Shown: positions 4,220 to 62,763 of the stretch, one piece after another | Layout: every line of letters starts with the position of its first letter | How positions within the stretch are numbered: position 1 is the first letter of the stretch | Source of the DNA: a virus | DNA: 64,000 nucleotides | Virus record (IMG/VR): IMGVR_UViG_3300022221_000006 | Span: 10,180 to 74,179 of that record | Reading direction: 5' to 3' (one strand) | Position numbers and translations under genes: made by a program | The notes under the pieces: generated by a model | The model's database searches: none | The model's input: the letters and a program-made list of their open reading frames with translations, nothing else | Told to the model about the DNA's origin: nothing

Positions 4220-5830
4220 ATGACTGTAGCAAACGCCGCTGATGTCACCAGAACAGTAGCAGATCCTAACGCTGAATACCTATCAATGCGTGATATATGG
4301 GATCGAAACAGGGCTGTATGCGGCGGCGAGCGCTACGTAAAGGCCTTAGATCAACGCTTAAGTCCTAGCATGCAAAACATGCTTATTCCTTTTTCCCCAT
4401 CTATGACGCAGCCTCAATATGACTTCTATCGTTTAGAGGCTGAGTTACCTGGGATTGTGTCTCAATTTTCAAAGATGTTGGTAGGAGGTCTTCTGCGCAA
4501 GACCCCTGTACTAACTCTACCTGACGACATGCCTGAAGGTGTCCGTGAGGAGGCTCACGACTGGATCATGAATAGCTTCACCCAGGACAATTCATCAATC
4601 ACATCCTTTCTAGACACCGCCTTGTGGGAAGAGATTCAAACAGGACGTGCCTGGGTATATGTAGATTATCCTTTTGTTGAAGATGCAGATTCACTTACAA
4701 ATGCAGACTTCAGAGAACTTGCTCCATTTCCTATCCTATGGAAGCCTGAAGAGATTGTGAACTGGAAACTTGGAAAGGATGAGAAAGGAAATGCAGTCCT
4801 AAAACAGATCATTGTACGGACACTAGTCGAACAGTATGGTGATACTGAAGACACTGAATTTCATCCTACATTTAAAGATACAGTTTATGTTCATGAACTC
4901 GACAGCGTCGGATATTATCAGATTCGCGTATTCGAAAGAGCTGATGATGTACAAGACGCACCGGTCGTTAATGGAAATCCCTACAAGAAACAATCCGATA
5001 GTAAGGTGGCTTTTCCTCTTGTAGACACGATCACTGGGATCAAAGCAAATGGCGAACGTTTGACACGAATCCCTGCATGGCCTCTTAATGGTAGCATGAA
5101 GATTACTGATCCAATCATTTCCGCTATCGTAGACAAAGAAATCAGTCTATATAATAAAATCAGTCGCCGTAATCACTTACTATATGGTGCTGCTACATAC
5201 ACTCCTGTGATATTCTCCGACATGGGTGAAAAAGAGTTCGACGAAATTGTAGCGAGTGGACTGGGAAGTTGGCTGCGGTTACCTATGGAGGCTAAAGTAG
5301 AGGTTCTAAAGACTCCTACAGATGCTCTGAAAGATATGGAGAAAGCGATTGCAAGTGCTATTGAAGAGATGGCACGCTTAGGGATTCGTATGTTAAGTCC
5401 TGAGACTGCTCAATCAGGGATTGCTCTTGAGATTCGGAATGCTGCCCAGACTGCTCAGCTAGGCTCCTTAAATAACAAGGTGTCTGCGATCATGTCTAAG
5501 ATTATTGCTTTTATGCTGAATTGGCGGTATGATTTAGAATTGACAGATTCTGATGTTGAATTTGACCTTTCATCTGACTTTAATCCCATCCCACTAGGTG
5601 CTGACTGGATTAGACTAGCAACAGAATGGTATGAGAACGGTCTACTTCCACGTAGCGTTTGGCTTCAGATTCTGAAACAGAATGACATTGTCTCTCCTGA
5701 CTATGATGATGAAGACGGTCAGACAGAGATTATTGAAGACGACCTGATACAAGGTCAGGCGAAGGCCGAAAATGAAGATATCCAAGATCAACTTGACAAA
5801 GAACTGGAAGATGAAGATTTAGATGCCTAA
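4220..5830 (+). CDS. Portal protein (DUF4055-type)
   Basis: 536 aa with acidic C-terminus. Motifs Y..R, GRAWVYVDYP, EIVNW. First gene of the head module. Confidence 0.85.
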   Translation: MTVANAADVTRTVADPNAEYLSMRDIWDRNRAVCGGERYVKALDQRLSPSMQNMLIPFSPSMTQPQYDFYRLEAELPGIVSQFSKMLVGGLLRKTPVLTLPDDMPEGVREEAHDWIMNSFTQDNSSITSFLDTALWEEIQTGRAWVYVDYPFVEDADSLTNADFRELAPFPILWKPEEIVNWKLGKDEKGNAVLKQIIVRTLVEQYGDTEDTEFHPTFKDTVYVHELDSVGYYQIRVFERADDVQDAPVVNGNPYKKQSDSKVAFPLVDTITGIKANGERLTRIPAWPLNGSMKITDPIISAIVDKEISLYNKISRRNHLLYGAATYTPVIFSDMGEKEFDEIVASGLGSWLRLPMEAKVEVLKTPTDALKDMEKAIASAIEEMARLGIRMLSPETAQSGIALEIRNAAQTAQLGSLNNKVSAIMSKIIAFMLNWRYDLELTDSDVEFDLSSDFNPIPLGADWIRLATEWYENGLLPRSVWLQILKQNDIVSPDYDDEDGQTEIIEDDLIQGQAKAENEDIQDQLDKELEDEDLDA

Positions 5831-8800
5831 TGTAAATACAGCGATCTATGATGGTAAAGTAGATCGCGCTGCTATGCTACGCCTGTACGAACAGAATACC
5901 CATGGAAAGATAGAAGCTGTCTTTGATGGTCATGTAGTTCGTCTAGATAAGCTAGTGAAGAAGTCTAAAATTAATTCAAAGACTTTCAAAGACTTTCAAA
6001 AGAATCTTGATATCGAATTGAAGAAGACCTACAAGGAAGCCTTTAGTGTTTCTAAAAGGTCACTGCTTGACATGGCAGCAGATCAAATGTCGTTTACATA
6101 CCAGAATTTAGATGCTGCATTAAGTAAGGTGTGGCGCACAAAGAGACCCCAAAGACGTATCTCTGAAGATATTGTCTTAAAACAACCACTCTACGAGAAT
6201 AGAACTCTTGAGATGGGTTGGAAAGGGGTCTCTAAAAACGAACGAAAAAGACTTGCGCAAGTGATTCGTAAAGGTATTGCAGACGGTGATACCGAAGAGA
6301 TCATCGCCAGGAATATCAGAAGAGGCAATGTTCATAAAATAACCCGTAATCAATCGCGATCGTTAGTGACCACTGCAATGACGAGTGTTAATGCTCAGGT
6401 CGATCATAGTGTCTATGTCGAGAATGAAAAAGCACTTCAGGGTTGGCAGTATGTAGCTGTTCTTGACTCAAGTACTACACAGATATGTGCCTCCCGTGAT
6501 GGTAAGATATATGGCGTCGATGACACAGCGTACCTCCCTCCTGCTCATTGGCAGTGTCGTTCGACAATAATCCCTGTGGTTAAGAAGTGGGAAGATCTTG
6601 CAAGTCTAGAGAGCGTTGCTCAGCTGCGTAGAAGAAATATGGCAAAACTAAGCCCTGCTCAGATAGCTAGATACGATGGCCAGACGCCTCTGAAAGAAAC
6701 ATATAATGCCTGGCTCCTGAGACAGCCTTCAAAGATCCAATATACGCATCTAGGTGATTGGCAGAAAGTAGACCTTTTTAACAAAGGGAAGATACATCTT
6801 TCTAAATTTACTTCTCCGGACGGTAAAACATTAGGGATTCGTCAATTGCGTCGGATGACAGATTCTGAGTATGCACCTCCAACAGGTTCTCAACGTTTTG
6901 CATTAGCAAAGGAAAAACTAGATGCGATGAATCTTGGTGCTATCTCTCCTGATGATTTTATAAACGACCGTAAGATGACAAACACCCTAAAGAATTTCTA
7001 CATTCTTCAATCAAAAGAATTGGACGGTACTTTATCACTTACTAACTATAGAGGAAATCTCATAGGAACAAAGAGAGCACAGAAACGAAGAGTGCTTACA
7101 AGACCTCCCAGAGAAGAACAGGTGATTTTCAATCCGGTCACAGGTCGTTATGAAGATTCAAGAATGTTTCAGCCAACACCTTCTGTTCTCGTGAACAATA
7201 TGAGGCTTGTGAATGAGAGTAGTATTCTTAAGGTCGCAGATAAAGAATACATCGATCGTTTTATTGGAAGTCTCTCTGAGTATATGAGTGTAAATGAAAG
7301 AGCTGTCGTGGCTGATAATCTGAGAATTCTCTTCACAAGATATCGAAAGAACCCCGAGAATTGGGTTAACTTTAAAGCCATTTCACAAGCACAGATTAAG
7401 TTTGACGTAATGAATGTCTCTGACACAATCGAGACACAGCTCAGAAGCGATGCGAATCTACTGAAGAAGCTTAAGCAGGATAATTACATTGACCCTGTCC
7501 TAGGTCCTGTTACCTTTGAAGATCTTGACAAACACTTCATAAGTAATATATTAGAACGTAATAAATGGGAAGATCGTATTGCTCCTAAAATCTCAGAGGA
7601 ACTCCGTGACGTTTTCGATCACAACATACCATTTAAAATACGAAGACGTTTGAGTGATTCAAATTTACAGCAGTTCTATCTAAAATTTGCACATAGACTT
7701 TCTCTGGCAGACAGTCCTGATGTAGACCAGCTAGCGGCTGCTTTAGGTCGTGATCTGTACAATCTTGCGAACTATAATGGCAATCGTCGACAATGGTATG
7801 ACCTAGGTAAGAAACTTTTAGAGTCGAATAATAAATTCTTCGAACTAGAAACCTTTGGAGTTCAGAAAAGACGTATGAAAAGTAGAATGAGTGGTCAGCT
7901 ATTTGGACCTTATTACGACACGTTCTCTTACAACATTCGCATCACAGACCCTCGTATCCAGAGGTATTCTCAGCTAAATAGAAAGATTGAGGTAGGTCTC
8001 AGGATCGGTGTCACAGATGTCGGTAATCGACTGGTCTTTCGAGAAGGTTATAAAACGTACTTCATCAAAAACCGTCTTGGCCTCTACACAGACACTCGGA
8101 TACCAATTACGTCAACAAGCAGTTTTATGGACTTTCCAGAAGGTCTTATAGACAAAGAAATGGCCGCATCTTTGAACTGGGCAGCTAAGACTGAGTATCG
8201 AATCGATGAGGACTTCTACGACTCGATCATGCATATAATGAACTTCACAGACGATAAAGGTAAGGCAAAATACTTCGATGATATAAACGAGTACCGTAAA
8301 TATATAGCAGCTAGAGGTGATGCGTATGAAAGATTTAAAGCGATGGAGTGGTTTCGTAAGAGAGGAGTTGCTTTTAGTAATCATCCTTTTGTTGACCACC
8401 GTGTGCGTATCTATGACCGTGGCTTTATCGGTCCTCAGTCTGGTGAAACTTTTAGACCTTTCCTGAATACTGCCAAGGAGAAAGTCTTAGGCATCGATAA
8501 CTTTAGAAATCTGCAAGATCAAATTGGAGCTTTCTTAGGAGGTCTCGATGACTATTTTGAAGGTCGTTATAACTCTCTAAGTGTGACAGGGCGACAGAAG
8601 ATTGCAATAAAATGGCGTAAAGAGCTGGTTACTATTGGAAATCATATGATACGAAATAAGCCAAATGATGTCCGTAAGATTCTTCAGTCAGACATGGTGG
8701 CTAGAATCGAAGGTGAAGAATTAGGTAAGTTTCTCAGATTCGCAATTGAAGTTGCTAAGATAGATAATTATCTAGACGGTGTCTATAACAAAACCTCTCT

Positions 8801-10442
8801 TCAAAAGCTTTCTAAATACAAGACAGCTCTCGCTCTTGAACAAGACGCATCGTCTTCAGGTGCCCAGATCATTGCGCTAACCACACGAAATAAGCAATTA
8901 GCAGAGCTTAGTAATGTTGTCCCTACAAACCAGAAACGACGACTCTACGACGAAATAGCAGCTGCCACGTTCAACGATCCAGCGTTTAGAAAACTAAATG
9001 AGAAGTTTGGACTTACTGAGAAAGATTTACGCAAGGCTGCGAAGGCTCAGAACATGGTAACCTTTTATGGAGCAGGAGAGAAGACAGGGATTCTGAACGT
9101 TGAAGGTAAATTGGCAAAAGTTCTTGAGAGACAACCTGGTACTCTCGTTGTGAAGGCCTCTGATCGCGACGTTGTCCTCAGTGAGATATCAGCACGCATT
9201 GCTCGTTATGAACGCTTTGATCCTGCTATTGCTGAAGAATTGAAAGTCCTTAGAAGCAATGTACGTGACATATTCAACAAAGGTCTTCATGTAGGGGATG
9301 ACATCATGGAAGACTTATATTTCTTGGACCCCGCGACCAAAGATCTGGTGTTACAAATGACGCAAAACTACACAAAGGTCGTAACCCCTGATGATTTTCG
9401 GCAGATTGCTAAGATTATGAGTATGCATCTTGGCGAACAGGTTCCTATCTTGAAAGACTTTACAAAATATTTAGGGCGACTGGGTGAAGACTTTCTCATC
9501 AACGCTAAACCTTCTAAGAGTAGTTTTTCCTGGAAAGGTATTTTAAAGGAGCGGTTATTTGGTTCATCCCGTGATGGTTATAAGCTGTCGAAAGAAACCA
9601 GTAAGCTTCTGGGACTCCCTGCAAACACAGCTATCTCAAAGCAGATTCTGAGTAAGTTTGGCTTCTGGCGTCCTAATGGAACTCTCAGCCAGCTACTCTA
9701 TGGAGTAAAGGATCCAGGAGATCGCAGAATAGGAGCTAAGTATTTCAAGATTCAAATAACAAAATTTAAGAAAATCTTTTCAATCGAAGTTTTCAAAGCC
9801 AACAGATTGCCTAAAAGGTGGACAAACATCCCCTGGAAGAACTTCGATGGGAAGACAATTGAGCAGAACTTTACGCAGACCTTCGAAGAGCGTCTGTTGT
9901 ATAGAGATAAGGACGGTAACTGGGTTACGAATATTCTTCAAGTACCTCAAAAGACGCAGGCGACTTGGTGGGAACAAATTCTCAATGATGCAGGAAATAT
10001 TGACGATATTGCTGATGCTACAAAGGCTAGAACTGCCTATGCTGTAAATGGGAATCACTCCAATGATGCTGTGATTGTCAAGCGATTCCATTTGTGGGGT
10101 AAGTCTGAAGATGTTCCTACTTCTACAATTCATGACGCTTTCTTTACTAATATCGCGGATATGTTAAAAGCACGGTCGGCTCTGCGTAAAATATATGCTG
10201 ATGCTATGAAAACAAATGTTATAAAAGCAACTCTAGATGAGATGTTAGCGAGAGGTCTCCCTCGTGCACTTTATGACAAGTATTTGAATGAAGCCATTGA
10301 AATAGGCCTTATCCCTGTACCAGGAAGGTCTCGAGTAGGCGGCAAGCTACTAAAAGATACCGACATATTAAACTCTGAAGACATCTTAAAGAAGGTTAAT
10401 GAAGTCTTTCAGGAAGATGCTTATTGGTACGGCGTGGGGTAA
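5823..10442 (+). CDS. MuF/SPP1-gp7 minor head protein fused to T7-superfamily single-subunit RNA polymerase (candidate virion RNAP)
   Basis: N-terminal ~345 aa: WQYVAVLDSSTTQICASRDG...PPAHWQCRS (MuF). C-terminal: DHRVRIY (DxxGR-like), motif A QDASSSGAQ (D1008), motif B R1070-K1074-Y1082-G, NGNHSND, motif C IHDAF (D1438). Confidence 0.92.
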   Translation: MPNVNTAIYDGKVDRAAMLRLYEQNTHGKIEAVFDGHVVRLDKLVKKSKINSKTFKDFQKNLDIELKKTYKEAFSVSKRSLLDMAADQMSFTYQNLDAALSKVWRTKRPQRRISEDIVLKQPLYENRTLEMGWKGVSKNERKRLAQVIRKGIADGDTEEIIARNIRRGNVHKITRNQSRSLVTTAMTSVNAQVDHSVYVENEKALQGWQYVAVLDSSTTQICASRDGKIYGVDDTAYLPPAHWQCRSTIIPVVKKWEDLASLESVAQLRRRNMAKLSPAQIARYDGQTPLKETYNAWLLRQPSKIQYTHLGDWQKVDLFNKGKIHLSKFTSPDGKTLGIRQLRRMTDSEYAPPTGSQRFALAKEKLDAMNLGAISPDDFINDRKMTNTLKNFYILQSKELDGTLSLTNYRGNLIGTKRAQKRRVLTRPPREEQVIFNPVTGRYEDSRMFQPTPSVLVNNMRLVNESSILKVADKEYIDRFIGSLSEYMSVNERAVVADNLRILFTRYRKNPENWVNFKAISQAQIKFDVMNVSDTIETQLRSDANLLKKLKQDNYIDPVLGPVTFEDLDKHFISNILERNKWEDRIAPKISEELRDVFDHNIPFKIRRRLSDSNLQQFYLKFAHRLSLADSPDVDQLAAALGRDLYNLANYNGNRRQWYDLGKKLLESNNKFFELETFGVQKRRMKSRMSGQLFGPYYDTFSYNIRITDPRIQRYSQLNRKIEVGLRIGVTDVGNRLVFREGYKTYFIKNRLGLYTDTRIPITSTSSFMDFPEGLIDKEMAASLNWAAKTEYRIDEDFYDSIMHIMNFTDDKGKAKYFDDINEYRKYIAARGDAYERFKAMEWFRKRGVAFSNHPFVDHRVRIYDRGFIGPQSGETFRPFLNTAKEKVLGIDNFRNLQDQIGAFLGGLDDYFEGRYNSLSVTGRQKIAIKWRKELVTIGNHMIRNKPNDVRKILQSDMVARIEGEELGKFLRFAIEVAKIDNYLDGVYNKTSLQKLSKYKTALALEQDASSSGAQIIALTTRNKQLAELSNVVPTNQKRRLYDEIAAATFNDPAFRKLNEKFGLTEKDLRKAAKAQNMVTFYGAGEKTGILNVEGKLAKVLERQPGTLVVKASDRDVVLSEISARIARYERFDPAIAEELKVLRSNVRDIFNKGLHVGDDIMEDLYFLDPATKDLVLQMTQNYTKVVTPDDFRQIAKIMSMHLGEQVPILKDFTKYLGRLGEDFLINAKPSKSSFSWKGILKERLFGSSRDGYKLSKETSKLLGLPANTAISKQILSKFGFWRPNGTLSQLLYGVKDPGDRRIGAKYFKIQITKFKKIFSIEVFKANRLPKRWTNIPWKNFDGKTIEQNFTQTFEERLLYRDKDGNWVTNILQVPQKTQATWWEQILNDAGNIDDIADATKARTAYAVNGNHSNDAVIVKRFHLWGKSEDVPTSTIHDAFFTNIADMLKARSALRKIYADAMKTNVIKATLDEMLARGLPRALYDKYLNEAIEIGLIPVPGRSRVGGKLLKDTDILNSEDILKKVNEVFQEDAYWYGVG

Positions 10443-10446
10443 TAGA

Positions 10447-10463
10447 ACCCCGTTAAATTAACC
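10447..10463 (+). promoter_or_regulatory. Class II repeated motif ACCCCGTTAAATTAwCC (candidate phage late promoter)
   Basis: Near-identical copies at 31664 and 57855. Lies upstream of scaffold/capsid. Confidence 0.7.
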
Positions 10464-10546
10464 CTGTTATTTAGTGTAACAAGAGTCTTAACAATTAAAC
10501 GTGTTGCTGTGCGACACATAAATGAGCTGTGCTCAGGAAAAGAAAG

Positions 10547-11233
10547 ATGCCAGATGAAGATGACGATACCAAAATCAAGGATCCCAAGAAAATTGTGGTC
10601 GGTGATACTGATGAAGCGACAAAGCTTCTCATCGCCCAACAGATTCAAGATGGGATTGCTGAGTCTTTAAAACCTATCAAGGAAAATCTTGATAAGGCGT
10701 ATAAGGCTAAAGAAGAAGCTGAGGCCCGTGCTCTAGAGCTGGAAAATAAGCAGAAAGAACGCGAGCTTAAAGATTTGGAAGAAGCAGGAAAGCACAAAGA
10801 AGTTTACGAACAACGTCTTGCTGATAAGGAAAAAGAACTGGAAGACACCGCCCAGACTATGAAGTCTTTGGCTCAAAAGAACATCGAACTGACGAGAGAT
10901 ATTGAAGTTCGAAATGCTCTGCGAGAGTTTGACTTTAGAAACGCCAATGCTAGTGATATGGCATTTCGAGAAGTCATAGGAAGTCTTACACAGAACTCCT
11001 CTGGAACATGGGTAGACGGTCAAGGTAGATCTGTCCTGGAAGTTGTTAAAGGTTTCGTTGATAACGAGACAAATGCTTTTCTTCTTAAACCGAAATCATC
11101 ATCAGGCTCCGGCACACAACACGGGGACGAAACTCCACCTGCCATTACGAAGACAGATTCTCTCTTCGGGATGAAGCAGGCGGATGTACTAAAACTAGCC
11201 TCTGAGGGTAAACTACCCAGAACGAGGCGCTAA
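10547..11233 (+). CDS. Capsid scaffolding protein
   Basis: Charged coiled coil, AFLLK..SSGSG C-terminal motif, directly before the capsid gene. AGGA SD before ATG 10547. Confidence 0.8.
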   Translation: MPDEDDDTKIKDPKKIVVGDTDEATKLLIAQQIQDGIAESLKPIKENLDKAYKAKEEAEARALELENKQKERELKDLEEAGKHKEVYEQRLADKEKELEDTAQTMKSLAQKNIELTRDIEVRNALREFDFRNANASDMAFREVIGSLTQNSSGTWVDGQGRSVLEVVKGFVDNETNAFLLKPKSSSGSGTQHGDETPPAITKTDSLFGMKQADVLKLASEGKLPRTRR

Positions 11234-11248: not shown

Positions 11249-12466
11249 ATGCGTACTGACATACGAGTTAATGATACTGGTGGTTACACACCTTACGTTC
11301 TACAAGAAACTATCGGAGCCTACTCTGACGAGGCATACACCAATGCCCGTAAGTTATCAGGAACCGATATCGTCCAGGGCGATCCTGATATCGATACTGA
11401 TGGTGAGACCTATATTGGTCAAATGCGATGGTTCACCCCATTAAATCCTGTTGTTAATGTTGCATCTCTGACTGATGCGACCAATGGTACTCCTACCACT
11501 TACGGTTCACAGTTCTTGCAATATGTGAAATCGGCTCGTACACACGGTGCTGAGAAAGTTAACCTTTCAAAGATTGTCACTCAAGACGACGGTCTGGCAA
11601 AAGTAGGTCGTGATCTGGGTGAAACTCGTGCACAAGATGAGCATGATGCAATCCTGGCTATTCTGAAAGGCGTAGCCATCTCTGAGCTTATGTACGGTGC
11701 TGCTCAGGCTACCGGCGCTTCAGGTCTTGGTGGTCAGTCATTCTCAAATGACCCTTCCGATAATGCTTATGGCTTCTATGTCGATTTAGGTGCAAGCAAG
11801 GTTGTTACTGATGCAGCTGCTGCTAATATTGGTGCACAACGAGCTGCTGGCTTTCTGAATGCCTTTGGTCAAGCATATAAGGACCATGAGCCTGAGTACG
11901 CATACCTCGTTGCCAGTCCTGCTGTTATGGCTTCACTGCGCTCTGCTAATCTGGTAGATTCTGATCGTGTCACTGACGGTAATGTTGAGTTCAACACTAT
12001 CTTCCAGGGCAAGTTCCGATTGATCCAGACTCGTGCTACCCAGTCATTGACTGCAGCTGAACGAGCAATGTTTGCAGCCACTTCTGTAGCGTCTGAAGGT
12101 GTCGATATTGTCGGCACGTTAACTTCGTATATCGTACTGCCTGGTGCTCTTGCAATGGAGCCTTTGACTATCGATGAAGACGTTGAGATCGAACGAGCAG
12201 CTGCTGCCTACCAAGGTGGTGGTACTACTCAAATATGGTATCGTTGGGGTTACATCCTACATCCTGCTGGTTACAACTGGGCAGGTTCTCAGGATGCATT
12301 TCCTACCAATGCAAATTACCAGCAAATCACTGACGGAACTACTCCTGTAGCTGTTGACTCTATCGGTGCTGCTACCGTGAATGGCCTTGACGGCTTCACT
12401 GGTGTATGGCAGCGTAAGACAAGCTCAGCTCTGTCTCTGGGTATCCTCCCAGTCTTCCACTCTTAA
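11249..12466 (+). CDS. Major capsid protein
   Basis: 405 aa, follows scaffold, visibly biased codon usage (GCT/GGT-rich), HK97-like layout. Confidence 0.85.
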   Translation: MRTDIRVNDTGGYTPYVLQETIGAYSDEAYTNARKLSGTDIVQGDPDIDTDGETYIGQMRWFTPLNPVVNVASLTDATNGTPTTYGSQFLQYVKSARTHGAEKVNLSKIVTQDDGLAKVGRDLGETRAQDEHDAILAILKGVAISELMYGAAQATGASGLGGQSFSNDPSDNAYGFYVDLGASKVVTDAAAANIGAQRAAGFLNAFGQAYKDHEPEYAYLVASPAVMASLRSANLVDSDRVTDGNVEFNTIFQGKFRLIQTRATQSLTAAERAMFAATSVASEGVDIVGTLTSYIVLPGALAMEPLTIDEDVEIERAAAAYQGGGTTQIWYRWGYILHPAGYNWAGSQDAFPTNANYQQITDGTTPVAVDSIGAATVNGLDGFTGVWQRKTSSALSLGILPVFHS

Positions 12467-15678: not shown

Positions 15679-18600
15679 ATGTCAGGTGTTATAGTTGATG
15701 TAGATGCCAGAACAGAGAAGGCTGAACGCGACTTACAACAGATAAATAAATCTCTTAGAGGTATAGAGACTTCAGCAAGTAATGCTGGTAAGACCATTTC
15801 ACGTGCGTTCGTTGGAATAGGTGCAGCCCTTACAGCTCATTTCTCAGTTTCACAAGTCAGTGGTATCTCAACCGAATTTACAAATCTGTCCAATCAAATA
15901 GCAGTTGTGACAGGTAGAACGCGAGAACTAAACAAGGTCCAGTCCGAGTTGTTCAACATTGCTGAGAACACTCGTGCCTCGATCTCTAACACAGTATCTA
16001 CCTTTGGTAGCCTAGGACGCTCACTGCGAGGTGTTGAATCGTCTAATACTAAAATACTGACGGTTACAAAGGCTATTCAACAAGCAACTGCCCTATCAGG
16101 TGCCTCTTCTGAATCCGCGAAAGCTGCCATTGTCCAGTTAGGACAGGGTCTCGCTGCAGGTGCTCTGAGAGGTCAAGAACTCATGTCTGTCATGGAACAG
16201 TTGCCACGTGCTGCTATAGCGATAGCCGACGGATTGGAGGTGCCTCTGGGTGCTCTGCGCAAGCTGGGCGAGTCCGGTAAATTGACGAGTGAACAAGTTT
16301 TTAATGCACTACTTCAACAGTCTGAGAAGATAGGCCAGGAATTCAAAAGCTTAGCACCTACTGTTCAGCAGTCAAAGAACCTTCTCACAGACAGCTTAAA
16401 AATCTATATAAGTGAGCTTGACAGGGGTATGGGTCTTTCCGATCGAATGGGCAGTTCCTTGCAAGGGTGGAGTAAAAAGATCAGAGAGGCATCTAAGGGC
16501 GCGTATGATCTCGGGAATAGAATTGCGTATAACTTGACTATCTTCAAGCGAGAAATCAAACAGTTTGTAGGCCCTTTCGCTAATATAGGTATTGCTATCG
16601 CAAAGCAATTTAAGAAGGCCCTCCCGAAGGCGTTTCTGACACTTACATTTGAAGCGATGTATAGAGATGTCATTCGAGACCTCGATAAGTTTACAGGGGG
16701 CTATATAAGTGCTTGGAAACGTTTCAAATTCATCGATATAATAAAGATTGAGAGTGATGTTGAAATAGCGATAAGAACCCTGAAAAGACTCCATCCTAAA
16801 TATTGGGCTGCAGGAGGTTTTGATGTACTGTCTCTGAAACATTTCTTTAGCGCCGAGAATTTAAATCTGTATCTACGTGCCTTACAATCACTTGCTGACG
16901 CTATTGAGAGTAACATACGTTCAGCTGCATCAGTTTTTAAGTCTCTTGCCATCAACATCAGGTTCGGAACAGAAGCAATGTTGAGGTTTGTAGGCATCAT
17001 ACCCGAATCTCTTGTCATGTTTCGAGTAGGACATTTAAAGCCTTTTCTGAAGACTGTTATTGAAATTGCACGTGCCATCACAGGTACATCTCTCGAATTC
17101 TATAGAGTAGGGCGCTTAATATCGGAAGGTCTGTTTCCAGACATCATCAGTGTCTTTAGAGCTATGGGCGATATTATGCAGCAACTGTTTGGACGTATTA
17201 CAAGCAGTTCTCGTCTAGCGAAGGCGATAGGTTACATCAAGACTTTCGCTGACTCTGTGATGAGGCTCTTTGAGAAAGTCTATATGAGCGTTGTCGGGGG
17301 CTCCACATGGACAGATACGATGAAAGGAATTTATGAGAAAGCTCGCTCATTTCTAGGTAAGACGCGAAAGGCCCTAGCATCTTTCGGAGAGTTTGTAATG
17401 ACGCAGTTTAAGAAACTTGCTGATAAAAACCTCTGGTCAAAAGTAGGCATAGCAATTCATACAGCTATCTTTTCAATAATCCCAGTAGCTGCATGGATTA
17501 TTAGGAGTGTTATTGATATTGTGACAACATCGATTGTTGCCTCATTAGGAATGATAGGATATCTATGGGCTAAAACTTTTAACAGCCTTGCAGAAGTTGC
17601 TCCTAAGTCTATCGCTAAAATGATACGTCGTGTAAGAGATTTTGGTCTTGAGCTAACTGTGTTATTCGCAGGTGTTGTTATTGCAGTAGGACGTCTTCTT
17701 AAGGCTCTTCTCTGGGTTGTAGCTGCTCTAGGTAAACTCTTCGTAATGGGTGCTGTTTTCTCATTTCATGCTCTTATCTATGAAATCTCACGACTGACAG
17801 AGTACCTCCGAGGGGATGCTGTACATGATATCATTGATTTTGGTAAAAAGGTTATTGACGTCTTCGCTGAAATCTATGACAAAGTTATAGGTAACTCGTA
17901 TTGGACTGATCTGATTGAGAATATTGTCAATACTTCAAACAGTCTCTGGGACTCTGTAAAAGGAGGCTTTTTCAAGTTCTACAATAACATTGTCAGTCTT
18001 TTTAAGTCCCTCAATAAAAGAGCTTCACTTCCAACATTCGAATTTAAAAGTTCCGTCAGTATTCCATTCATCGAGGATAAAAGTCTTCTTACACGAATGA
18101 AAGATAGAATACTTGAAATGTACGCTGATGTTGCAGAAAGGTTTCCTACGATGATAACAGGTGCCGTTCTCGCCGTCGCCGGTATCGCTGTCTCACTTTT
18201 ATTTCCAGCAGGTGAGATAAAGAAAGCATTACTGAGCGGTATCTTTCTTGCCCTTATAAAGGCCGGTACCTTGATCGCTAGCGCGTTAGGCAAGGGTGTA
18301 CTAGATGTTAACTTTGTAACGTCGCTGGCCAGGTCTGCAGGTAACGCTGTGGGTAACTTCATTGGAGGCATTCTTAGAGACCTCCCTGCTACATTTGACC
18401 TCTTGTTAGGCGCTGCCATTAACTTCATCCGTGGTGTCTTTGAAGCAGTCCTTACACAAATTCCAATTTTAGGAACCGCTATTAAGGGTATCTTTGGTAT
18501 CTTAGATGCAACAGGGACTTCAGGAGTAGCTGGTGTCATAGGGACATTGTTTCTAGGAAAATATATTGCAAACGTTCTTGGATTCTTTGGCCTCTTTACA

Positions 18601-21600
18601 ACACCTATGGCAAAGATGAAAGGGATCATGGGTAAACTATATACCGTTGTCTCGGGTAAAGGGGGAGTTCTTTCCCAGTTGGTCTTCGGTAGACTAGGAC
18701 CAACAGCTGGTATCGCAATGGTCTTAGGTGTCTTGGATATATTAGGAGCCTTTGATACATTATTTGAAGACTCCCCTTTGTTCCACTTAGCAGCACAGGG
18801 CGGTATCGTGGCTCTCATGTTAGGAGGTAATGGAGCAATCCAGTATGCGAAAAACTTTGCGATTGATAAAATCTTATCACCTATAGGTGACGCACTTCGT
18901 AGAGGGGCGATCAATATGGGGTTTGGTCAAATCCTTGCGAATGCGATGGTTACAGGCCAGGAAGGGTTTGTTGCCTCTACTCTTGCCTTTGTGACATCAG
19001 CGATTCAATCAGTAGGTTCCCGAATTGTAAGTTTTGTAGCACCTCTCGCTAGTAAAACATACGACTATTTACAGATACTGCTGTTAGGTCCTGATCCTGC
19101 TGCGACTATCGCAAAAATGAAATTATACCTTATCGCAGCAATGGATTCAGGGAAAGCACTCTTGAGTGGGATTGGTGCCTTCTTATCGCCTCTATTAGCT
19201 AGTATGGGTTCTTTCTTTAAAGGATTAGGAGCACAAGTCTCTGGTTTGTTTTCCCAAGTGCAGACCGCCAGTGTGAGAGCAGCTTCCACAGCAACAAGTG
19301 TCGGTGGTCGTAACGGAATCTTTGGGAGAGTGATCTTCGGAGCTGCCGGTAGAACAGGTCTTGTCCTGGCCATCATTGCACTCTTGACACTTTTCAGCTC
19401 TTCAGCAAGTGCTGCTGATAAAGAAATTACAAACTTAGCAGGCAATAACCGTATTGGTCAGGCAGCTTCCTCCTTGAAGCAAGATTGGGAAGATATCCGC
19501 GACAACAATCCTCTGGCAGCTGCAGGTATTACAGCTCTAGGTGTGTTTACCACACTAGGTGTCTTCCTCGCGTATAAATTTAGACGTGATGTACTGACCT
19601 CTATGTTGAGTGCTTTTAACCCTAAAATTGCTTACAACTTCGGCTTTTCAAGTCTTAAAACAATCGCTAAAATCAAGTCGGCGATGCTGTCCTTGGGCCG
19701 TGTTATTGCAACATCTTTTGTTGCTTTTGAAGCAGGTTCTGCTATAGGTGAAGCTTTTGGAGGAGAAGAAGGAAGTATGATTGGGGGTACCATAGGTGTC
19801 CTCATCGCTGAAGGCCTGATACGAGCCTTTGGAGGCACTTTCAAGAAGATCTTTTCATGGCGGTTAATATGGCCGATTATCACAGGAGCTTTTGCATTTA
19901 TAGGTAAAGCACTGATAGGTCTTATCTTCTCTAAAATCGCAGCTGTTGTTTCTATTGTAGGTATTTTGGGTCTGCTCCTATTCGGAAAGAAAGGAGAGTT
20001 CTGGAATGATATTGGAAAGGCAATTCAATGGGTCAAAGAATTAATAGGGCTCAGTACAGAGGCTTCTAGAATAGATTCAAAGTCAGGGATTTCAAATGAA
20101 GCTCTTGGATTTGCAAACCTCAATCAGATAGATGTCGCTCATTCTTTAGAAGGTATCGACTTTGATAAGATAAGTGACCGTCAGACTGAACGACTGGAAG
20201 CAAAGCTTAATGAGGTGAATGATGCAATTCTAGAAGCACAAGAGGAAGCTTCATTTACAAAGGATGGTAAGATTGTTGAAGATACAAAGAAATCTCTTGA
20301 GATACTCCTAAAGGGTACAAAGAACTATGTCGACAAACTAACAAGCCAGAGCCTTCCTAGCTATGATGAAATAGGTGCTGCCTTAGACTCTTTTAAGTTT
20401 ACAAAGGAAGCAACCCTCTTCGATTCCATCCTCTTAAATTATCGCCAGGGAGCCTTAGATGTTCTCTATGGCTTAAAAGATGTCGCTATTTCTCTGAAGG
20501 GATTACCTGATGATATAGAGAAGCGTGAACGAGCAATTCTTGCAGACTCAAAGCTCACCAAGTTCAACGCTCGATTCGTTGATGATGATCCAATTCTGAA
20601 TAGCATTATCAAGGCTCAGAAAGATTTCGGTGAACCAGGTAAAGATGCAAACATCACATCTGAAGAAGAACAGAAGTTAGTCGATCTCACAGCAGCATAT
20701 ATACGTAATTTGAAGATTGCTTCAGAAGAACGCATAGGACTGTTTGGGAACCGACAGGCATTCAATGTCGAGGCAGATAGTTATAAACAGATGGCCGAAA
20801 GCGCTGCTGTTTTAAACTCAGAATTCGCGAAGTTAAAGCGTCTCTCAGATCGCCGCAATGAAGTAGAAGCCTTCAATAAAGATATCAAGCAGATCAGCAA
20901 TAATCTCTCACTTATTGGGATTAATATAAAGACCTCTGAACTATTTGCCGAGGACTCTGATGCTCTAGACCGTGTACGTATATTAGGGCAGACCGCTCGA
21001 GATGTGACAGAGAATCTAAAGAATCTTGCAAGTGTTGAAGAGATGAGAGAATACCTTATCACACTTTCTAGTGTAAAGAAAGAGCTAGGGGAAATCAAAG
21101 AGCGAGCTGAGAATGCAGGTAAGTCAATGCAGACCATTGCTTTACAAAGTCTTGAGGGTCTAGGCGATAGTCTTTTCTCAGAGGAAACTGTTAGACGTCT
21201 TCCTGAAACACTTTCAAAGGCTATTACCGAGCTATCGCGTGAGTATAAGGATAACAGTGGATTTCTAGATCTTGAGTTCAGACCGGATGCCGTGAGTACT
21301 GCTAAGTTCAGACGAGACACTGAGCTGAAGATGCTCAATCTGAAGAAGTCTATACATGAAATAATGTTAGACCCTTCAAATATAGGTGGTGCCAAAGAGC
21401 TTGCCGAAGGTTTGGGTCTTGACTTTGATTCGTTACTCAAGCACAAAGGTATTCCAGGCATTGTAGACGCTTTGTCAGACGTCCTTGCTCTGCAACACGA
21501 TATCGATCTTTCAAAACTATTAGGTGATGGTGAAAAATATCGAGACGCCTCTCTAGCTCTGAAGAAATATATGGAGCTACTGACTAAGGCTCCTCAGACA

Positions 21601-30637: not shown

Positions 30638-30653
30638 CAATTGCGCCATATGT

Positions 30654-30683
30654 GGTATCTTATATGAATAGGAATAATCCTAT
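30654..30683 (+). promoter_or_regulatory. Class I repeated motif GGTATCTTATATGAATAGGAATAATCCTAT, copy 1
   Basis: Exact 30-bp copies at 32770 and 33186. Each lies just upstream of an SD and start codon. Confidence 0.8.
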
Positions 30684-30705
30684 TATAATAATCAGGAGAT
30701 ACTCG

Positions 30706-31663: not shown

Positions 31664-31680
31664 ACCCCGTTAAATTATCC
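31664..31680 (+). promoter_or_regulatory. Class II repeated motif (ACCCCGTTAAATTATCC)
   Basis: Copy of the 10447/57855 motif, upstream of the lysis genes. Confidence 0.7.
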
Positions 31681-31849
31681 CTGTAGGCTCCCCCGTAATG
31701 TAGTATTTATAACTCCCTATCACCACTGTTGTAAATCTATAACAATAAAGGATTAAAGAATAGAATAAGGATATCCCCTCAAGACCTTCTCTAAAGAGGT
31801 CACTCAATAGTCCCTAGGGCTAACTAAAATATAAATAAAGAGGTATATC

Positions 31850-32752: not shown

Positions 32753-32769
32753 AAAACTGCGCAAAAATG

Positions 32770-32799
32770 GGTATCTTATATGAATAGGAATAATCCTAT
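32770..32799 (+). promoter_or_regulatory. Class I repeated motif, copy 2
   Basis: Exact 30-bp repeat. Shares AACTGCGCAAAAA upstream and CACAACAA downstream with copy 3. Confidence 0.8.
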
Positions 32800-32820
32800 C
32801 ACAACAACTGAGGTAATATT

Positions 32821-33168: not shown

Positions 33169-33185
33169 TGAACTGCGCAAAAACA

Positions 33186-33215
33186 GGTATCTTATATGAA
33201 TAGGAATAATCCTAT
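33186..33215 (+). promoter_or_regulatory. Class I repeated motif, copy 3
   Basis: Exact 30-bp repeat; heads the gene run leading to the second RNAP. Confidence 0.8.
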
Positions 33216-33236
33216 CACAACAAACGAGGTAACACT

Positions 33237-34384: not shown

Positions 34385-36658
34385 TTGAGAAAATTGAAAG
34401 CTATGATAAAACAAAAGATAATTCTGACAACAACAAAAAGGATAGCAAAGGAAATTGCACCACAAAACCCCCTAATATATCTAAAAGAACATGATGTCGA
34501 AAAGTATATTAATGAATTAATCTCGACAGTCTATCTGTTCACACGCCCTAAGAAGGGTTCATCGGACCCTCTCTATATGGTTGAAATTATATCGGCTATC
34601 GGACATCGGGTCAGAGGAAAGTTAGGACTTAGAAAAGACTCAGCGTTAGCAGCTAAAACAGGAGCGTTTCTTTTATATACATTCGAAGTACTTAATATCA
34701 TCCATGTTATCCTTGGAGCTGGTAGACGTGGACATAATGCGTACATTGTAGATGTTTTGGACGATGCTACGATAAATGAACTATGGAAGGAGCTAGGTGA
34801 CCGCGAGATCGAGAAGTTACCTGCGCTACAGCCGCATCAGGATTGGAAGCATTCAAGGCATCCTACAGGAATGCTTATGGTAAAAACAGGATGTAAAGAG
34901 ACACTTGAATCACTAACACCTCAAACACATCCTATCGTCTTCAACGTCCTGAACAGAGCTCAACAAGTAGGTTGGCGAATAAATACGGAGATTCATCACT
35001 TACAACAATGGGCACTAAAGTACAAAACAGTCGCCTTTGCAGATATATGGGAACAACAAAACCCTGAAGCGCGTGCTACAAAATTAAGAGAGGCTCGATC
35101 TATTGACTCGATTGCGAGTAAATACCTAGGGACAACCTTCTATCATCTCTATTACTATGACTTCAGAGGTCGTAAGTATGCAGCCACTGCTTATCTACAC
35201 GAACAAGGAAGTGATGTAGCGAAAGGTCTCTTGCTCAGAGATGATAAGAAGCGAATAGGAAAAGAAGGATTTTTCTGGCTACTTGTGAGTATCGCCTCTA
35301 ACTGGGGCGGTGAGAGTGGTCGTGAAGATGGATTGAAAACAGATAAAATACCTCTTGAAGAAAGGTATCAATGGGCGCTCGCAAATGAGGATATTTTATT
35401 GTCCTACGCGAAATCACCTAAAGTGAATCAGGGATGGATGAAAGCTGATAAGCCCTGGCAATTTATAGCAGCGTGTTTTGAGCTAAGGTCTTGTTACCGA
35501 TGGGCTAAGTATGACCATACTAAGCATGATCACCTAAAGGAGGAAATCTATGAATATGAGTCTCATCTTGAGTGCTTTATTGATGGTAGTAACAATGGCT
35601 CTCAGCATCTATGTGCGCTTACACGCGACGAAGTTACGGCTCCTCACGTTAATCTTGTGCCACTTGATTATCCTGGGGACCTCTATAAATATGTTGCAGA
35701 TCATGTTTGGGACAGCTTAGAGGCTCAAGTTAATCTCCTGACAGAAGCTGAAGTTGAAATTTGTGAAAAGTTCATAGATGATCTGGTCGTGCACAAAAAG
35801 CGAATAAACAGTGCGCCCCGTGGTAGCGAAATCAAAAGGCTCCTTGTGGATAAGATACGAAAGTTTAAGGAGGAACATGGACTTTTAATGGTGCTTGTAG
35901 CTCCTGTATTTTGGTTTAGAATCCAGGATGCTAAGGAGAAACGTAAGATTGTGAAGAGAAACACAATGACGCTTCCCTATGGCGGAACACCCTATGGACT
36001 TGGACAACAGATCATTGATGATGCTAAGAAACATGGGATTGAACAACTCCTATATATGGAACATAGCTGGGGCGCTTTCTTAGGAAGAGAAGTATTTAAA
36101 AACTGCCAGGAAGCTCTTAAACGACCTATGCAACTCCTTGATATCTTTGAGAAGGCAGGGAAGCTAGCAGAAGCCGAAGAGAGATTCTTAAAATGGACTG
36201 TACCAATAACAAACTTCCCGGTAGTGCAGCACTACACGGAAGGTCGTGTGAAGAAGATATGGGTTCAGTACGGACCGCCTAAAGGAACCAGAAATTCAAC
36301 AGGTTACTTTACAAACACCTTACAATTGCATATTTGCTTTGTAGAAGATCCACAACCATCGAAGCGCAAACAAGCACAGGGAGCTTCTCCTAATGCCATT
36401 CACAGCCTAGATGCAGCACACTTAATGCTTACAGTAGATGAGGCACCTTTTCCAATAACAACTGTTCATGATTCTTTTGGATGTTTGTTAGCTGATATGC
36501 CTGAACTGTACAAACTAATACGTGAAACATTCGTAGAACTCCATGAGGTCAATCCACTCTATTCATTGTTTGAACAGATAGGAGGCGACATCTCAGACGT
36601 TGATCTGGGGAATCTTGATATCAATTTGATACTTGATTCAGAATATTGTTTTTCATAG
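34385..36658 (+). CDS. T7-family single-subunit DNA-directed RNA polymerase (non-virion)
   Basis: YYDFRGRKY, motif A IDGSNNGSQH, motif B RKIVKRNTMTLPYG, SPNAIHSLDAAH, motif C VHDSFG. Confidence 0.95.
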   Translation: MRKLKAMIKQKIILTTTKRIAKEIAPQNPLIYLKEHDVEKYINELISTVYLFTRPKKGSSDPLYMVEIISAIGHRVRGKLGLRKDSALAAKTGAFLLYTFEVLNIIHVILGAGRRGHNAYIVDVLDDATINELWKELGDREIEKLPALQPHQDWKHSRHPTGMLMVKTGCKETLESLTPQTHPIVFNVLNRAQQVGWRINTEIHHLQQWALKYKTVAFADIWEQQNPEARATKLREARSIDSIASKYLGTTFYHLYYYDFRGRKYAATAYLHEQGSDVAKGLLLRDDKKRIGKEGFFWLLVSIASNWGGESGREDGLKTDKIPLEERYQWALANEDILLSYAKSPKVNQGWMKADKPWQFIAACFELRSCYRWAKYDHTKHDHLKEEIYEYESHLECFIDGSNNGSQHLCALTRDEVTAPHVNLVPLDYPGDLYKYVADHVWDSLEAQVNLLTEAEVEICEKFIDDLVVHKKRINSAPRGSEIKRLLVDKIRKFKEEHGLLMVLVAPVFWFRIQDAKEKRKIVKRNTMTLPYGGTPYGLGQQIIDDAKKHGIEQLLYMEHSWGAFLGREVFKNCQEALKRPMQLLDIFEKAGKLAEAEERFLKWTVPITNFPVVQHYTEGRVKKIWVQYGPPKGTRNSTGYFTNTLQLHICFVEDPQPSKRKQAQGASPNAIHSLDAAHLMLTVDEAPFPITTVHDSFGCLLADMPELYKLIRETFVELHEVNPLYSLFEQIGGDISDVDLGNLDINLILDSEYCFS

Positions 36659-38139: not shown

Positions 38140-38202
38140 AGTCTAGCTCGTTATCTCGATGCCTGCTAAAATACATACTGTAAAATGCACCTAAAAGGCA
38201 TG

Positions 38203-38218
38203 CCGGAATCGTAACCGG
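38203..38218 (+). repeat. CCGG-A(2-3 nt)(C/A)GTAA-CCGG hairpin element, copy 1
   Basis: CCGGAATCGTAACCGG preceded by an ATGCCT...AGGCAT stem. Confidence 0.65.
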
Positions 38219-38952: not shown

Positions 38953-40958
38953 TGTTCAGACTGGTTTTTGATATTGAAGGCGATGGGTTCCTAAGAGATG
39001 TAACACGGATGTGGACGATCATTATCCATAACTTAACCACAGGCGAGCGCGTGGAATTCCTTGAGAATGACCTAGGCTGGCAGGATTATTTTAATAATAA
39101 TGTGGGGATTGTAGTTGGGCATAACATTTTAGGATATGATGTTCCTGTCCTAGAAAAACTCTTTGGGTATAAATTCCCAAAAGAAACTCAATTTCATGAC
39201 ACGCTTTTGATGTCACAGATTCTTGACTACCGGCGATTCGGCTACCAAGGGCACTCACTAGCGGTGTGGGGTAAATCACTAAATTATCCAAAAATTGACT
39301 TCCACGACTTCTCAAAATGGACTCCTGAGATGTCTAAGTATTGTCACCAAGACGTAAATCTTAACGTTGAGGTGTATAAAATTCTAATACAAGAATATTA
39401 TGATTTGTTTGACAAACTTGAGAAAGATGAGGGAACAGGTCATAGAATAAAAACATTTCTTCAGGCTGAACATGCTGCCACTACTTGGCAAGCTCAGGCT
39501 GAATTGCACGGCTGGCCCTTCGACAAAGAAGGAGCTATTGAACTCTTCGGTAAGTTAGAGGAGGAACTGACTGAAATTCGGGATAAATTAGAAGGAGTCT
39601 TAGGCTCAAAGTCAATTGCAATCGACAAGGTAAAAGGAATTGTGCCTCACAAAGAACCTAAGTGGGTTGCTACAGGGTACTATCATGCACATACTGCGCA
39701 GTGGTTTGGTATCGATCCTCGCTGCGGTTCTGATCTTTCTACAAAAGAGGCTCGTATGATCATAGCCTCCGGCGAATATGAGGAGGAAGATGAAATAATG
39801 AAGATGGCTCAGGCTATCCTGACGCATGGTGAGCGACCGATTACAGGCCCGTATTGTAGAGTAGACTTCCAGAAACTAAAGTTAAGCTCTGTCGCAGATG
39901 TTAAAATTTATCTATATCGACATGGATGGGAACCCTCCGAATGGAACACTAAATGGAATCCTGCTACTAAAAAGAATGAAAACACTTCACCTAAAATCAT
40001 TGATGACGATCTCGATCTTTTAGGCGAAAACGGAAGGTTGTATCGAGCCTTTACAACAGCAGAATCTCGATACAGTATAGTAAAAACATGGATTGAAAAC
40101 GTTGATGACAATGGAATGCTTCATGGAAACTCAAGGATGATAGGAACGCCGAGTATGCGCGCTACACACCAGATCATTGTAAATGTACCCTCTGGAGAGC
40201 TTAAGGATGATGGAACTCCTGTTAGTAAATGGGGTCCTGAGATGAGAGCCTTGTTTAGGTCAAAGCCAGGCTGGAAATGCATAGGATGTGATTCAAAAGG
40301 CAACCAGGCGCGAGGTCTCGCACACTATCTAGGAGATCAGGAGTTTATAGACGTAATCCTGCACGGTGATATTCATGCATACAACGCCGTTAAATTAACC
40401 GAAGCATTGTCGAAGATGGGTGTACAGCACACGGTACCAAGAAGTGCCGCAAAGAGAATCCTGTATGCCTTCCTATTTGGAGCTTCAGGTAAGAAGCTGT
40501 GGAGCTATATATTTGGCACCTTCAATGCAACTAAAGGAAATAAGTTAAAAAAGGAGTTTATTAAAGCAGTACCTGGGTTTGAAGACCTTAACAAAAAGCT
40601 GGAGAATATCTATGGAAGCACCTCAAAGTTTGGATACGGCTACATTCCTTCAATGGTTGGTAATAGAATTTATGTTGATTCTTTTCATAAACTTCTTGTA
40701 TATTTACTACAATCCCTTGAAAAGATTACATGTAGCACTGCGGTTATGCTCACTATGCAGCGTCTGGAGGAAGAAAGTATTCCATACATCCCTCTCATCT
40801 ACTATCATGATGAGGAGGATTTCATGGTACCAGAAGAATTTGCAGAACGTGCAGCTGAAATAGGTTCAGGCGCCTTCAAGGATGCGGCGCTCCTATATGA
40901 TATCAAAATAATGGATGGTGATGCAAAGATCGGCGACAGCTGGCTAGATATTCATTAA
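38952..40958 (+). CDS. Family A DNA polymerase with 3'-5' exonuclease (T7 gp5-like)
   Basis: Exonuclease FDIEGD, GHNILGYD, YCHQDV. Polymerase motif A CDSKGNQAR, motif B RSAAKRILYAFLFG, motif C YHDE. Confidence 0.95.
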   Translation: MFRLVFDIEGDGFLRDVTRMWTIIIHNLTTGERVEFLENDLGWQDYFNNNVGIVVGHNILGYDVPVLEKLFGYKFPKETQFHDTLLMSQILDYRRFGYQGHSLAVWGKSLNYPKIDFHDFSKWTPEMSKYCHQDVNLNVEVYKILIQEYYDLFDKLEKDEGTGHRIKTFLQAEHAATTWQAQAELHGWPFDKEGAIELFGKLEEELTEIRDKLEGVLGSKSIAIDKVKGIVPHKEPKWVATGYYHAHTAQWFGIDPRCGSDLSTKEARMIIASGEYEEEDEIMKMAQAILTHGERPITGPYCRVDFQKLKLSSVADVKIYLYRHGWEPSEWNTKWNPATKKNENTSPKIIDDDLDLLGENGRLYRAFTTAESRYSIVKTWIENVDDNGMLHGNSRMIGTPSMRATHQIIVNVPSGELKDDGTPVSKWGPEMRALFRSKPGWKCIGCDSKGNQARGLAHYLGDQEFIDVILHGDIHAYNAVKLTEALSKMGVQHTVPRSAAKRILYAFLFGASGKKLWSYIFGTFNATKGNKLKKEFIKAVPGFEDLNKKLENIYGSTSKFGYGYIPSMVGNRIYVDSFHKLLVYLLQSLEKITCSTAVMLTMQRLEEESIPYIPLIYYHDEEDFMVPEEFAERAAEIGSGAFKDAALLYDIKIMDGDAKIGDSWLDIH

Positions 40959-41248: not shown

Positions 41249-41327
41249 ATCCAACAGTTCGTATAAAAGTTGGTCACACTCCAGGTATGCTCTGGAATTG
41301 TGTAAGAAGCTATCGCTAGCAACGATG

Positions 41328-41343
41328 CCGGAAAAGTAACCGT
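41328..41343 (+). repeat. CCGG hairpin element, copy 2
   Basis: ATCG-CTAGCAA-CGAT stem followed by CCGGAAAAGTAACCGT. Confidence 0.6.
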
Positions 41344-46143: not shown

Positions 46144-46208
46144 GTCGGGGTTGGTTGCACTTGTGTCTGCGGACAAGTAATATTATAAAACTATCGCTCG
46201 CATCGATC

Positions 46209-46224
46209 CCGGAAAAGTAACCGG
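46209..46224 (+). repeat. CCGG hairpin element, copy 4
   Basis: CTATCGCTCGCATCGATC followed by CCGGAAAAGTAACCGG; ~34 bp nearly identical to 41311-41342. Confidence 0.65.
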
Positions 46225-57854: not shown

Positions 57855-57871
57855 ACCCCGTTAAATTAACC
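57855..57871 (+). promoter_or_regulatory. Class II repeated motif (ACCCCGTTAAATTAACC)
   Basis: Identical to 10447-10463. Confidence 0.7.
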
Positions 57872-57976
57872 TATGTCTCACGTAGAGAATAGCGTCTTAG
57901 ACCCATTCTAAGGCATCTAGGGAGTACAATATCGTGCTCCCTTTTGTTAATTTATTATCTCGAGGATAAGCAACAA

Positions 57977-62718: not shown

Positions 62719-62723
62719 CCAAT

Positions 62724-62748: not shown

Positions 62749-62763
62749 AAACGAGGTATTAAA

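Follow-up and report, generated by a model that had tools for sequence, protein, structure and literature searches.

Phage T7 makes its RNA polymerase (RNAP) early in infection, as a soluble protein whose mRNA is transcribed by the host. Other phages carry an RNAP in their capsid, and the characterized ones are N4-like and crAss-like phages, which are short-tailed and in which the enzyme is each time a giant protein of its own. In the crAss-like phage phi14:2, the capsid-carried enzyme that starts early transcription is gp66, which has a two-barrel RNAi-polymerase-like core, not the T7/pol I fold, and belongs to a podovirus-like virion. Phage N4 (Schitoviridae) encodes among its late/virion genes a T7-superfamily single-subunit RNAP, gp50, and a second T7-like phage RNAP is used for later genes, the proposed logic being that the injected enzyme leads to the next polymerase (PMC4496689, PMC5512222). 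The N4 virion RNAP (vRNAP) is a stand-alone protein of ~3500 aa with its own injection/encapsidation regions and a zincin-like domain, and such modules have been stated to occur only in N4-like phages (PMC5512222). As for MuF proteins, a few copies of SPP1 gp7 enter the procapsid via the portal and support the start of infection, and MuF domains have been proposed to take C-terminal cargo along into the capsid, from which it would be delivered at infection (PMC6316719, PMC5512222). A survey of injected polyvalent proteins reported many MuF fusions, with no RNA polymerase among them (PMC5512222). Here, we analyze a gene that joins a MuF domain to a T7-type RNAP in one open reading frame (ORF). 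It lies in a 64,000-nt stretch of viral DNA (positions 10,180 to 74,179 of IMG/VR record IMGVR_UViG_3300022221_000006), which we call the window and whose own numbering we use except where contig positions are given. A first-pass annotation of the window, made from the sequence alone, had proposed a MuF-tagged capsid RNAP and knew of no characterized example; in agreement with this, we found no description of a MuF-RNAP fusion in the published literature.

The fusion gene (5823..10442, plus strand) consists of 1539 codons without interruption and occupies the MuF slot, as initially noted. The portal protein gene upstream (4220..5830, plus strand; phrog_145, E 4e-59; PF13264 in homologues) overlaps the start of the fusion gene by 8 nt at its 3' end, and the scaffold gene (10529-11233) and the major head protein gene (11249-12466) follow downstream. 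This is the only MuF encoded on the phage contig. MuF (PF04233) and RNA_pol (PF00940) are the only Pfam domains in the protein; both score above cut-off, and more than 450 homologues have the same architecture.

Residues 1-345 (5823..6857, plus strand) make up the MuF/SPP1 gp7-like head domain. Phage_Mu_F (PF04233) was found at residues 144-250 with 50.3 bits against a curated cut-off of 29.6, and the head morphogenesis family phrog_241 covered residues 2-408 (E 2e-55). We aligned 21 full-length relatives sharing 23-63% identity, and all of them keep the MuF residues D215, C222, P239, P240, H242, C245, R246 and S247, which belong to the signature LD..T..C..DG and PPxHxxCRS. A scan of prokaryote genomes with a single MuF pattern as query returned only ordinary MuFs, the matches of which end at residues 342-347; this agrees with the earlier delimitation of a complete MuF at residues ~1-345. 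In the predicted structure of residues 1-600 (mean predicted local distance difference test score [pLDDT], 85.9), the MuF domain is well folded (pLDDT ~90) and is followed by a hinge at residues 350-355 (pLDDT <50) and then by a helical domain. The hinge and this helical linker, the latter spanning residues ~356-562, together take up residues 346-562 (6858..7508, plus strand), a segment of confidently folded helices with no known fold that lies outside the T7-aligned range. When residues 1-600 were searched against the PDB with Foldseek, neither the MuF domain nor the linker had a match at E<=0.001. Judged by profile, signature residues and adjacency to the portal gene, the fusion protein is a bona fide MuF.

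The overall layout is that of MuF proteins with C-terminal cargo, among them the MuF polymorphic toxins: an N-terminal MuF encoded beside the portal gene is connected by a hinge to an enzymatic module at the C terminus. The cargo is different, since the modules listed in the survey are RNases, 2H phosphoesterases, RelA/SpoT proteins, phosphoribosyltransferases (PRTases) and zeta-toxin-like kinases (PMC5512222), whereas here it is a polymerase of ~980 aa. Furthermore, the C-terminal toxins were described in lysogenic phages (PMC6316719), whereas the phages considered here are apparently virulent. Finally, MuF toxins pair with an adjacent immunity gene, but none is evident here, the next gene being that of the scaffold.

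The polymerase module corresponds to residues 563-1539 (7509..10439, plus strand) and, at ~977 aa, is larger than the C-terminal ~750 aa first assigned to it. Pfam RNA_pol scored 34.5 bits against a cut-off of 22, and the RNA polymerase family phrog_414 matched with E 3e-21. An AlphaFold2 (AF2) model of residues 350-1539 reached a pLDDT of 82.8 and a predicted template modeling score (pTM) of 0.79, and Foldseek matched it to POLRMT/mitochondrial RNAPs and to T7 RNAP with E values of 1e-17 to 1e-18. The structure prediction that the first-pass annotation had suggested as a check indeed gave a T7-type fold: VIA-align superimposed the model on T7 RNAP with Z 30.4 over 560 residues (root mean square deviation, 4.7), model residues 214-1189 corresponding to T7 residues 30-882. 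This near-whole match extends to the promoter-binding domain at the N terminus. Model residues 1004-1026 form a beta-hairpin, which aligned with the T7 specificity-loop region. Scores were similar for the yeast and human mitochondrial RNAPs (Z 28-30) and lower for the N4 mini-vRNAP (Z ~21). A family profile searched against PDB sequences found T7 RNAP at 6e-23 and aligned the DxRGR motif, motif A, the specificity-loop region, the HSxD motif and motif C, but gave no match to N4 vRNAP. The profile was needed, as a single-sequence phmmer search of the PDB gave a chance match only. Identity to T7 and mitochondrial RNAPs is ~17-18% over aligned residues.

The fused enzyme is therefore nearer to the T7/mitochondrial RNAPs than to the N4 mini-vRNAP (Z ~30 versus ~21, with no sequence-level match to the latter), so that the earlier comparison with N4 applies to the logic of a polymerase relay, as discussed below, and not to similarity of the proteins. 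With T7 RNAP it shares, besides the fold, motifs A, B and C, DxRGR, the H784/D787 pair and the specificity-loop hairpin. Unlike T7 RNAP, it sits behind ~560 residues of head protein and linker, and unlike N4 gp50, it belongs to a MuF-tagged protein of 1539 aa encoded by a long-tailed phage, N4 being a podovirus.

Among the 21 relatives, R862, D1008, K1071, K1074, Y1082, G1083, D1415 and D1438 are invariant. This is in good agreement with the initial assignment of D1008, K1074, Y1082 and D1438 as the T7 catalytic residues. The equivalents of T7 H784/D787 and the DxRxR motif are fully or almost fully conserved, H1412 being present in 18 and H1437 in 17 of the relatives; all motifs named in the first-pass annotation, including the H/D pair and HD1438, are thus present, and one assignment, that of R1070, did not hold (see below). 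That both the MuF signature and the catalytic residues are kept down to 23% identity speaks for selection on both halves. Purifying selection at this depth argues that both halves work, and the C-terminal half, a bona fide T7-type RNAP by profile, catalytic residues and fold, is apparently active.

To place the fusion among other phages, we looked for the same protein in phage databases, a search that had been recommended at the outset. With residues 700-1539 as query, 453 proteins were retrieved and, among the matches listed, most were 1520-1575 aa long and carried both Pfam domains. An exhaustive HMMER search with residues 350-1539 gave 165 clusters (50% identity), full-length relatives at 20-35% identity included. 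MuF and RNA_pol were also found together in three long distant relatives (P0155, P0158 and P0170; 32-34% identity to the query), which stand for clades at 28-34% identity. Besides these metagenomic homologues, EBPR siphovirus 1 carries the fusion gene at 58% identity, and the cultured roseophages DSS3_VP1 and DSS3_PM1 (Naomviridae) encode a homologue that shares 29% identity across 90% of its length and is annotated only as a head or minor head protein. In DSS3_VP1, this homologue is gp108 (YP_010105321). DSS3_VP1, whose host is the alphaproteobacterium Ruegeria pomeroyi DSS-3, is syntenic with the phage studied here and has the identical gene order portal-MuF-scaffold-capsid. The design is apparently both widespread and undescribed.

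Two kinds of insertion were observed in this gene family. In EBPR siphovirus 1 (JF412302.1, 25771-31144), the fusion gene is interrupted by an HNH endonuclease gene and appears as two ORFs. An insertion of ~160 aa, some 20 residues before motif A, is present in several metagenomic homologues (P0063, P0077, P0085 and similar), and Pfam showed no domain in it, be it of an intein or of an endonuclease. The fusion gene seems to be a target of mobile elements.

The same phage encodes a second T7-like RNAP, which is free of any MuF part (34385..36658, plus strand; 757 aa; phrog_414, E 3e-113; PF00940, 228.8 bits). The fused and free enzymes could be aligned only around motifs A and C, and they are therefore not recent duplicates of each other. 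Both a fused RNAP and a free RNAP of ~750 aa were present in this genome, in DSS3_VP1 and in all three IMG/VR relatives examined, two of which are classed as complete and one of which has no recognized termini; in EBPR siphovirus 1, a partial record, we found the fused enzyme only. The presence of a second phage RNAP is reminiscent of N4, although N4 RNAPII consists of two subunits and the free RNAP described here is a single chain.

Repeat searches of the window revealed two strong classes of intergenic motifs, all on the coding strand. Class I is represented by three plus-strand copies, at 30638..30669 (position weight matrix [PWM] score 26.5, with a weaker upstream half), 32754..32785 (PWM 44.3) and 33170..33201 (PWM 38.8), which have an exact 30-mer in common (starts at 30654, 32770 and 33186). 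We then surveyed 10 kb on each side of the free RNAP gene in the 70 IMG/VR relatives fetched and obtained 58 unique class I sites across ~50 phages whose RNAPs are 52-68% identical. The consensus is aaa.tGCGgaAAaa..gGTATCTTATATGAaa or, in its short form of ~30 nt, TGCGgaAAaa-N2-gGTATCTTATATGA. Each phage has 2 or 3 sites, 1-4 kb 5' of the free RNAP gene; similarly, a whole-genome pattern search of the three relatives found 1-3 sites in each, mainly before the free RNAP. In our phage, two of the sites lie in a unit bounded by class II elements, which also contains the free RNAP gene and small ORFs without an assigned function.

The information content of class I far exceeds that of a sigma-70 promoter, with 14 contiguous invariant bases and a 9-base upstream box. 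Moreover, the motif does not read as a sigma-70 promoter: there is no conserved TTG, the hexamer candidates are misspaced, and the 14 invariant bases would fall in the spacer. A sigma-70 scan of the region gave 22 matches against 20.9 ± 4.2 expected, that is, no enrichment. The 3' end of class I (TATAT|GA) would seem to resemble T7-type promoters, with their AT-rich segment for melting and their purine at the start. Because class I stands ahead of the free RNAP gene, the polymerase that reads it must exist before the free RNAP does. Conservation of a promoter across phages of different hosts also fits a phage-borne enzyme better than the host polymerase.

Directly 3' of the class I TATATGA, about half of 61 sites have a hairpin, which in the window is found at 30668-30690, 32784-32806 and 33200-33222. 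Its sequence varies among phages but the pairing is kept, and the mean folding energy is -3.9 kcal/mol versus -2.0 kcal/mol in shuffled sequences (p = 5.5e-6). This hairpin may form a stem-loop at the 5' end of the early transcripts, or it may belong to the promoter. When promoter variants were compared with polymerase sequences, the variation within a genome was as large as that between genomes.

Class II elements are ~17 nt long, with the consensus A.CCCGTTAAaTTAACCCt derived from 52 unique sites. The first copy in the window, ACCCCGTTAAATTAACCCT (10447..10465, plus strand), begins 4 nt after the stop codon of the fusion gene, ahead of the scaffold and capsid genes. Two further copies are at 31664..31682 and 57855..57873, both on the plus strand, and a weaker match of doubtful function lies within the DNA polymerase ORF (40384..40402, plus strand; PWM 19.7). 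Upstream of the window, a plus-strand copy at contig position 4066 precedes the packaging block and faces a minus-strand copy at contig position 4307. The three IMG/VR relatives have 5 or 6 sites per genome by whole-genome pattern search and, like EBPR siphovirus 1, all have one directly 3' of the fusion gene. In DSS3_VP1, a fivefold repeat with the core GCGTTAAAG that lies 3' of its RNAP recalls class II.

The replication block also contains three intergenic CGATGCCGGAAAAGTAACCG-like elements (38198-38217, 41323-41342 and 46204-46223), each with a variable small hairpin on its 5' side. Their agreement with class II extends to 11 of 16 positions, and the relatives lack them. Variant promoters, processing sites and terminators are all conceivable roles.

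Taken together, these data lead us to favor a model, which we hold to be rather likely, in which a portal-tethered capsid RNAP starts the early operon in a two-polymerase relay like that of N4. The fusion protein would be a low-copy head protein whose MuF domain, by analogy with SPP1 gp7, docks on the portal during procapsid assembly, and docking would bring the C-terminal T7-type polymerase inside the capsid. When the phage infects a cell, the protein would leave with the DNA or just ahead of it. The fused enzyme would then transcribe from class I (TGCGgaAAaa-N2-gGTATCTTATATGA), two of the three sites of which head a presumed early operon of ~5 kb comprising small genes and the free 757-aa RNAP. 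The latter would in turn read class II (CCCGTTAAATTAACCC), which heads the replication, packaging, capsid and lysis units. The class II element behind the fusion gene could lift the output of scaffold and capsid above that of portal and fusion protein, matching the copy numbers expected. Of the original proposal, the intact MuF, its genomic slot and the complete polymerase are directly visible, and deep conservation, a second RNAP and two promoter classes laid out as a relay have been added; we infer portal binding, packaging, ejection, polymerase activity and the pairing of each polymerase with its promoter.

Several observations weigh against this model. A protein of 1539 aa would need to pass through a very long tail, the tape measure protein having 2573 aa. 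In the polymerase itself, position 1070, the expected counterpart of T7 R627 and named as such in the first-pass annotation, is an arginine in only 4 of the 21 relatives, while K1071 is kept in all 21. K1071 is more likely the counterpart, standing three (i+3) and not four (i+4) residues from K1074; the motif B arginine of T7 would then be functionally replaced by a lysine, in a slight departure from R-x3-K. Regarding the promoters, the assignment of class I to the fused enzyme is made by logic only. One of the class I sites, copy 1, precedes a tail-fibre-like gene, and two complete relatives have an extra site 50-70 nt 3' of a class II element and far from the free RNAP (G001, 54262/54332; G003, 69033/69080), a tandem arrangement from which it would seem that both polymerases serve some genes. 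A point in favor of the model comes from DSS3_VP1, which at the homologous place, just past its tail genes and ahead of the small genes 5' of the free RNAP, has an internal repeat (TGAGAAAACTAA-GGCATCTATAATGA). It matches class I with the same spacing and ranks first in ~60 kb on both strands, but its 16 matches at 24 informative positions are marginal next to a background maximum of 15/24. Scanning DSS3_VP1 with the clade PWMs gave no matches, the weak likeness being seen by consensus-match count alone, and kinship of this repeat with class I is suggestive only. Against the model, lastly, the published Naomviridae papers report no virion proteomics, nor do they speak of an RNA polymerase.

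Among other explanations, the fusion protein might be packaged or portal-bound while its polymerase is active in the producing cell, either in late transcription or in coupling transcription to packaging or maturation, with host RNAP starting the early operon. T7 RNAP has been reported to take part in concatemer processing, and the fusion gene belongs to the late head module, lying downstream of the class II element at contig position 4066 and having another class II element directly behind it in all genomes checked. However, class I, which precedes the free RNAP gene, is unlike sigma-70 promoters and is conserved far beyond the need of a host promoter, possibly across hosts. In addition, tethering to a head protein of few copies would be of no use to a soluble late polymerase, and a late enzyme is already supplied by the free RNAP. 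We consider this explanation unlikely.

Alternatively, the fusion protein could be injected as proposed but have as its main task a transcription-driven entry of the genome, as in T7, or the priming of replication, a role that single-subunit RNAPs have in T7 and in mitochondria. The fact that nearly all genes and promoter-like elements point in one direction would suit transcription-driven entry. Nevertheless, such tasks overlap with our model and do not exclude it, and since class I stands before the free RNAP operon, gene expression is probably at least among the functions of the enzyme. As the main function, entry or priming has only a slim chance in our view.

We find it very improbable that the polymerase module is catalytically dead and acts as a DNA-binding or pilot domain holding the DNA end at the portal. 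SPP1 gp7 does bind DNA (PMC6316719), and the canonical arginine of motif B is not conserved here, as described above. Against this, both catalytic aspartates, K1074, Y1082, G1083, the H784/D787-equivalent pair and DxRxR have stayed fixed, or almost fixed, through deep divergence. Dead enzymes usually lose their catalytic residues. Finally, the chance that two genes were united by an assembly error or a frameshift, which the first-pass annotation had named as refuting its proposal, is virtually nil: although the window comes from a metagenome-assembled bin, no support for an artefact was found, and it is excluded by the recurrence of the same ~1540-aa architecture, which hundreds of independent assemblies and also sequenced isolates contain.

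The genome around the fusion gene is closed. The contig is 74,179 bp long, and its first 100 bases are repeated from position 74,046, giving a terminal overlap of 133 bp and thus a phage genome of ~74.0 kb. Its G+C content is 42.4%, compared to 48.9% in the remainder of the metagenome bin, so that placement in this bin is a weak guide to the host. A search of sequencing runs listed a single carrier, the probable source DNA sample, and no RNA data set. Coding is on one strand almost throughout. The large terminase gene lies upstream of the window, and the major head protein gene is followed by genes for an adaptor, the tail tube and the tape measure protein. The last of these (15679-23400; 2573 aa) implies an unusually long tail, and a distal tail protein of 1887 aa (24974-30637) comes after it. 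Downstream of the tail genes are the small ORFs and the free T7-like RNAP, a family A DNA polymerase, an exonuclease, a primase/helicase, a ribonucleotide reductase and a ligase. A GIY-YIG homing endonuclease gene (SegE-like; 48172-48636) is located just 5' of the primase/helicase gene, across the annotated start of which runs a perfect 30-nt tandem duplication (48803-48862). The phage also encodes a peptide deformylase (59367-59957; phrog_2890, E 3e-27).

Two further genes of the window concern nucleotide metabolism. One is adenylosuccinate-synthetase-like (62722-63885; phrog_1211, annotated as PurZ-type; PF00709), its closest solved relatives being bacterial PurA and not PurZ, and the other encodes a DatZ-like HD dATPase (46674-47309; phrog_7076; S-2L DatZ 6zpa, E 4e-5). 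Together they could form a kit for 2-aminoadenine (a Z-genome). We also considered whether the fusion is tied family-wide to non-canonical DNA, given these genes here and dU-DNA in DSS3_VP1, and rejected this idea, as the PurA-like gene was absent from five relatives.

If our model is correct, fusion to a MuF domain would be a simple modular route to the virion RNAP strategy in long-tailed phages, and the cargo of MuF proteins would extend from toxins to core gene expression machinery. The two polymerase-promoter pairs could also serve as new orthogonal transcription tools. Going further, we regard it as an even call whether these phages represent a third, independently evolved kind of virion RNAP, namely, a portal-tethered T7-type enzyme with its own bipartite class I promoter and a relay to a second polymerase, which would make a long-tailed group that includes the Naomviridae independent of host RNAP from the first minute. 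Such a system would explain the self-contained transcription program of a large group of environmental phages, a member of which has been cultured on Ruegeria pomeroyi.

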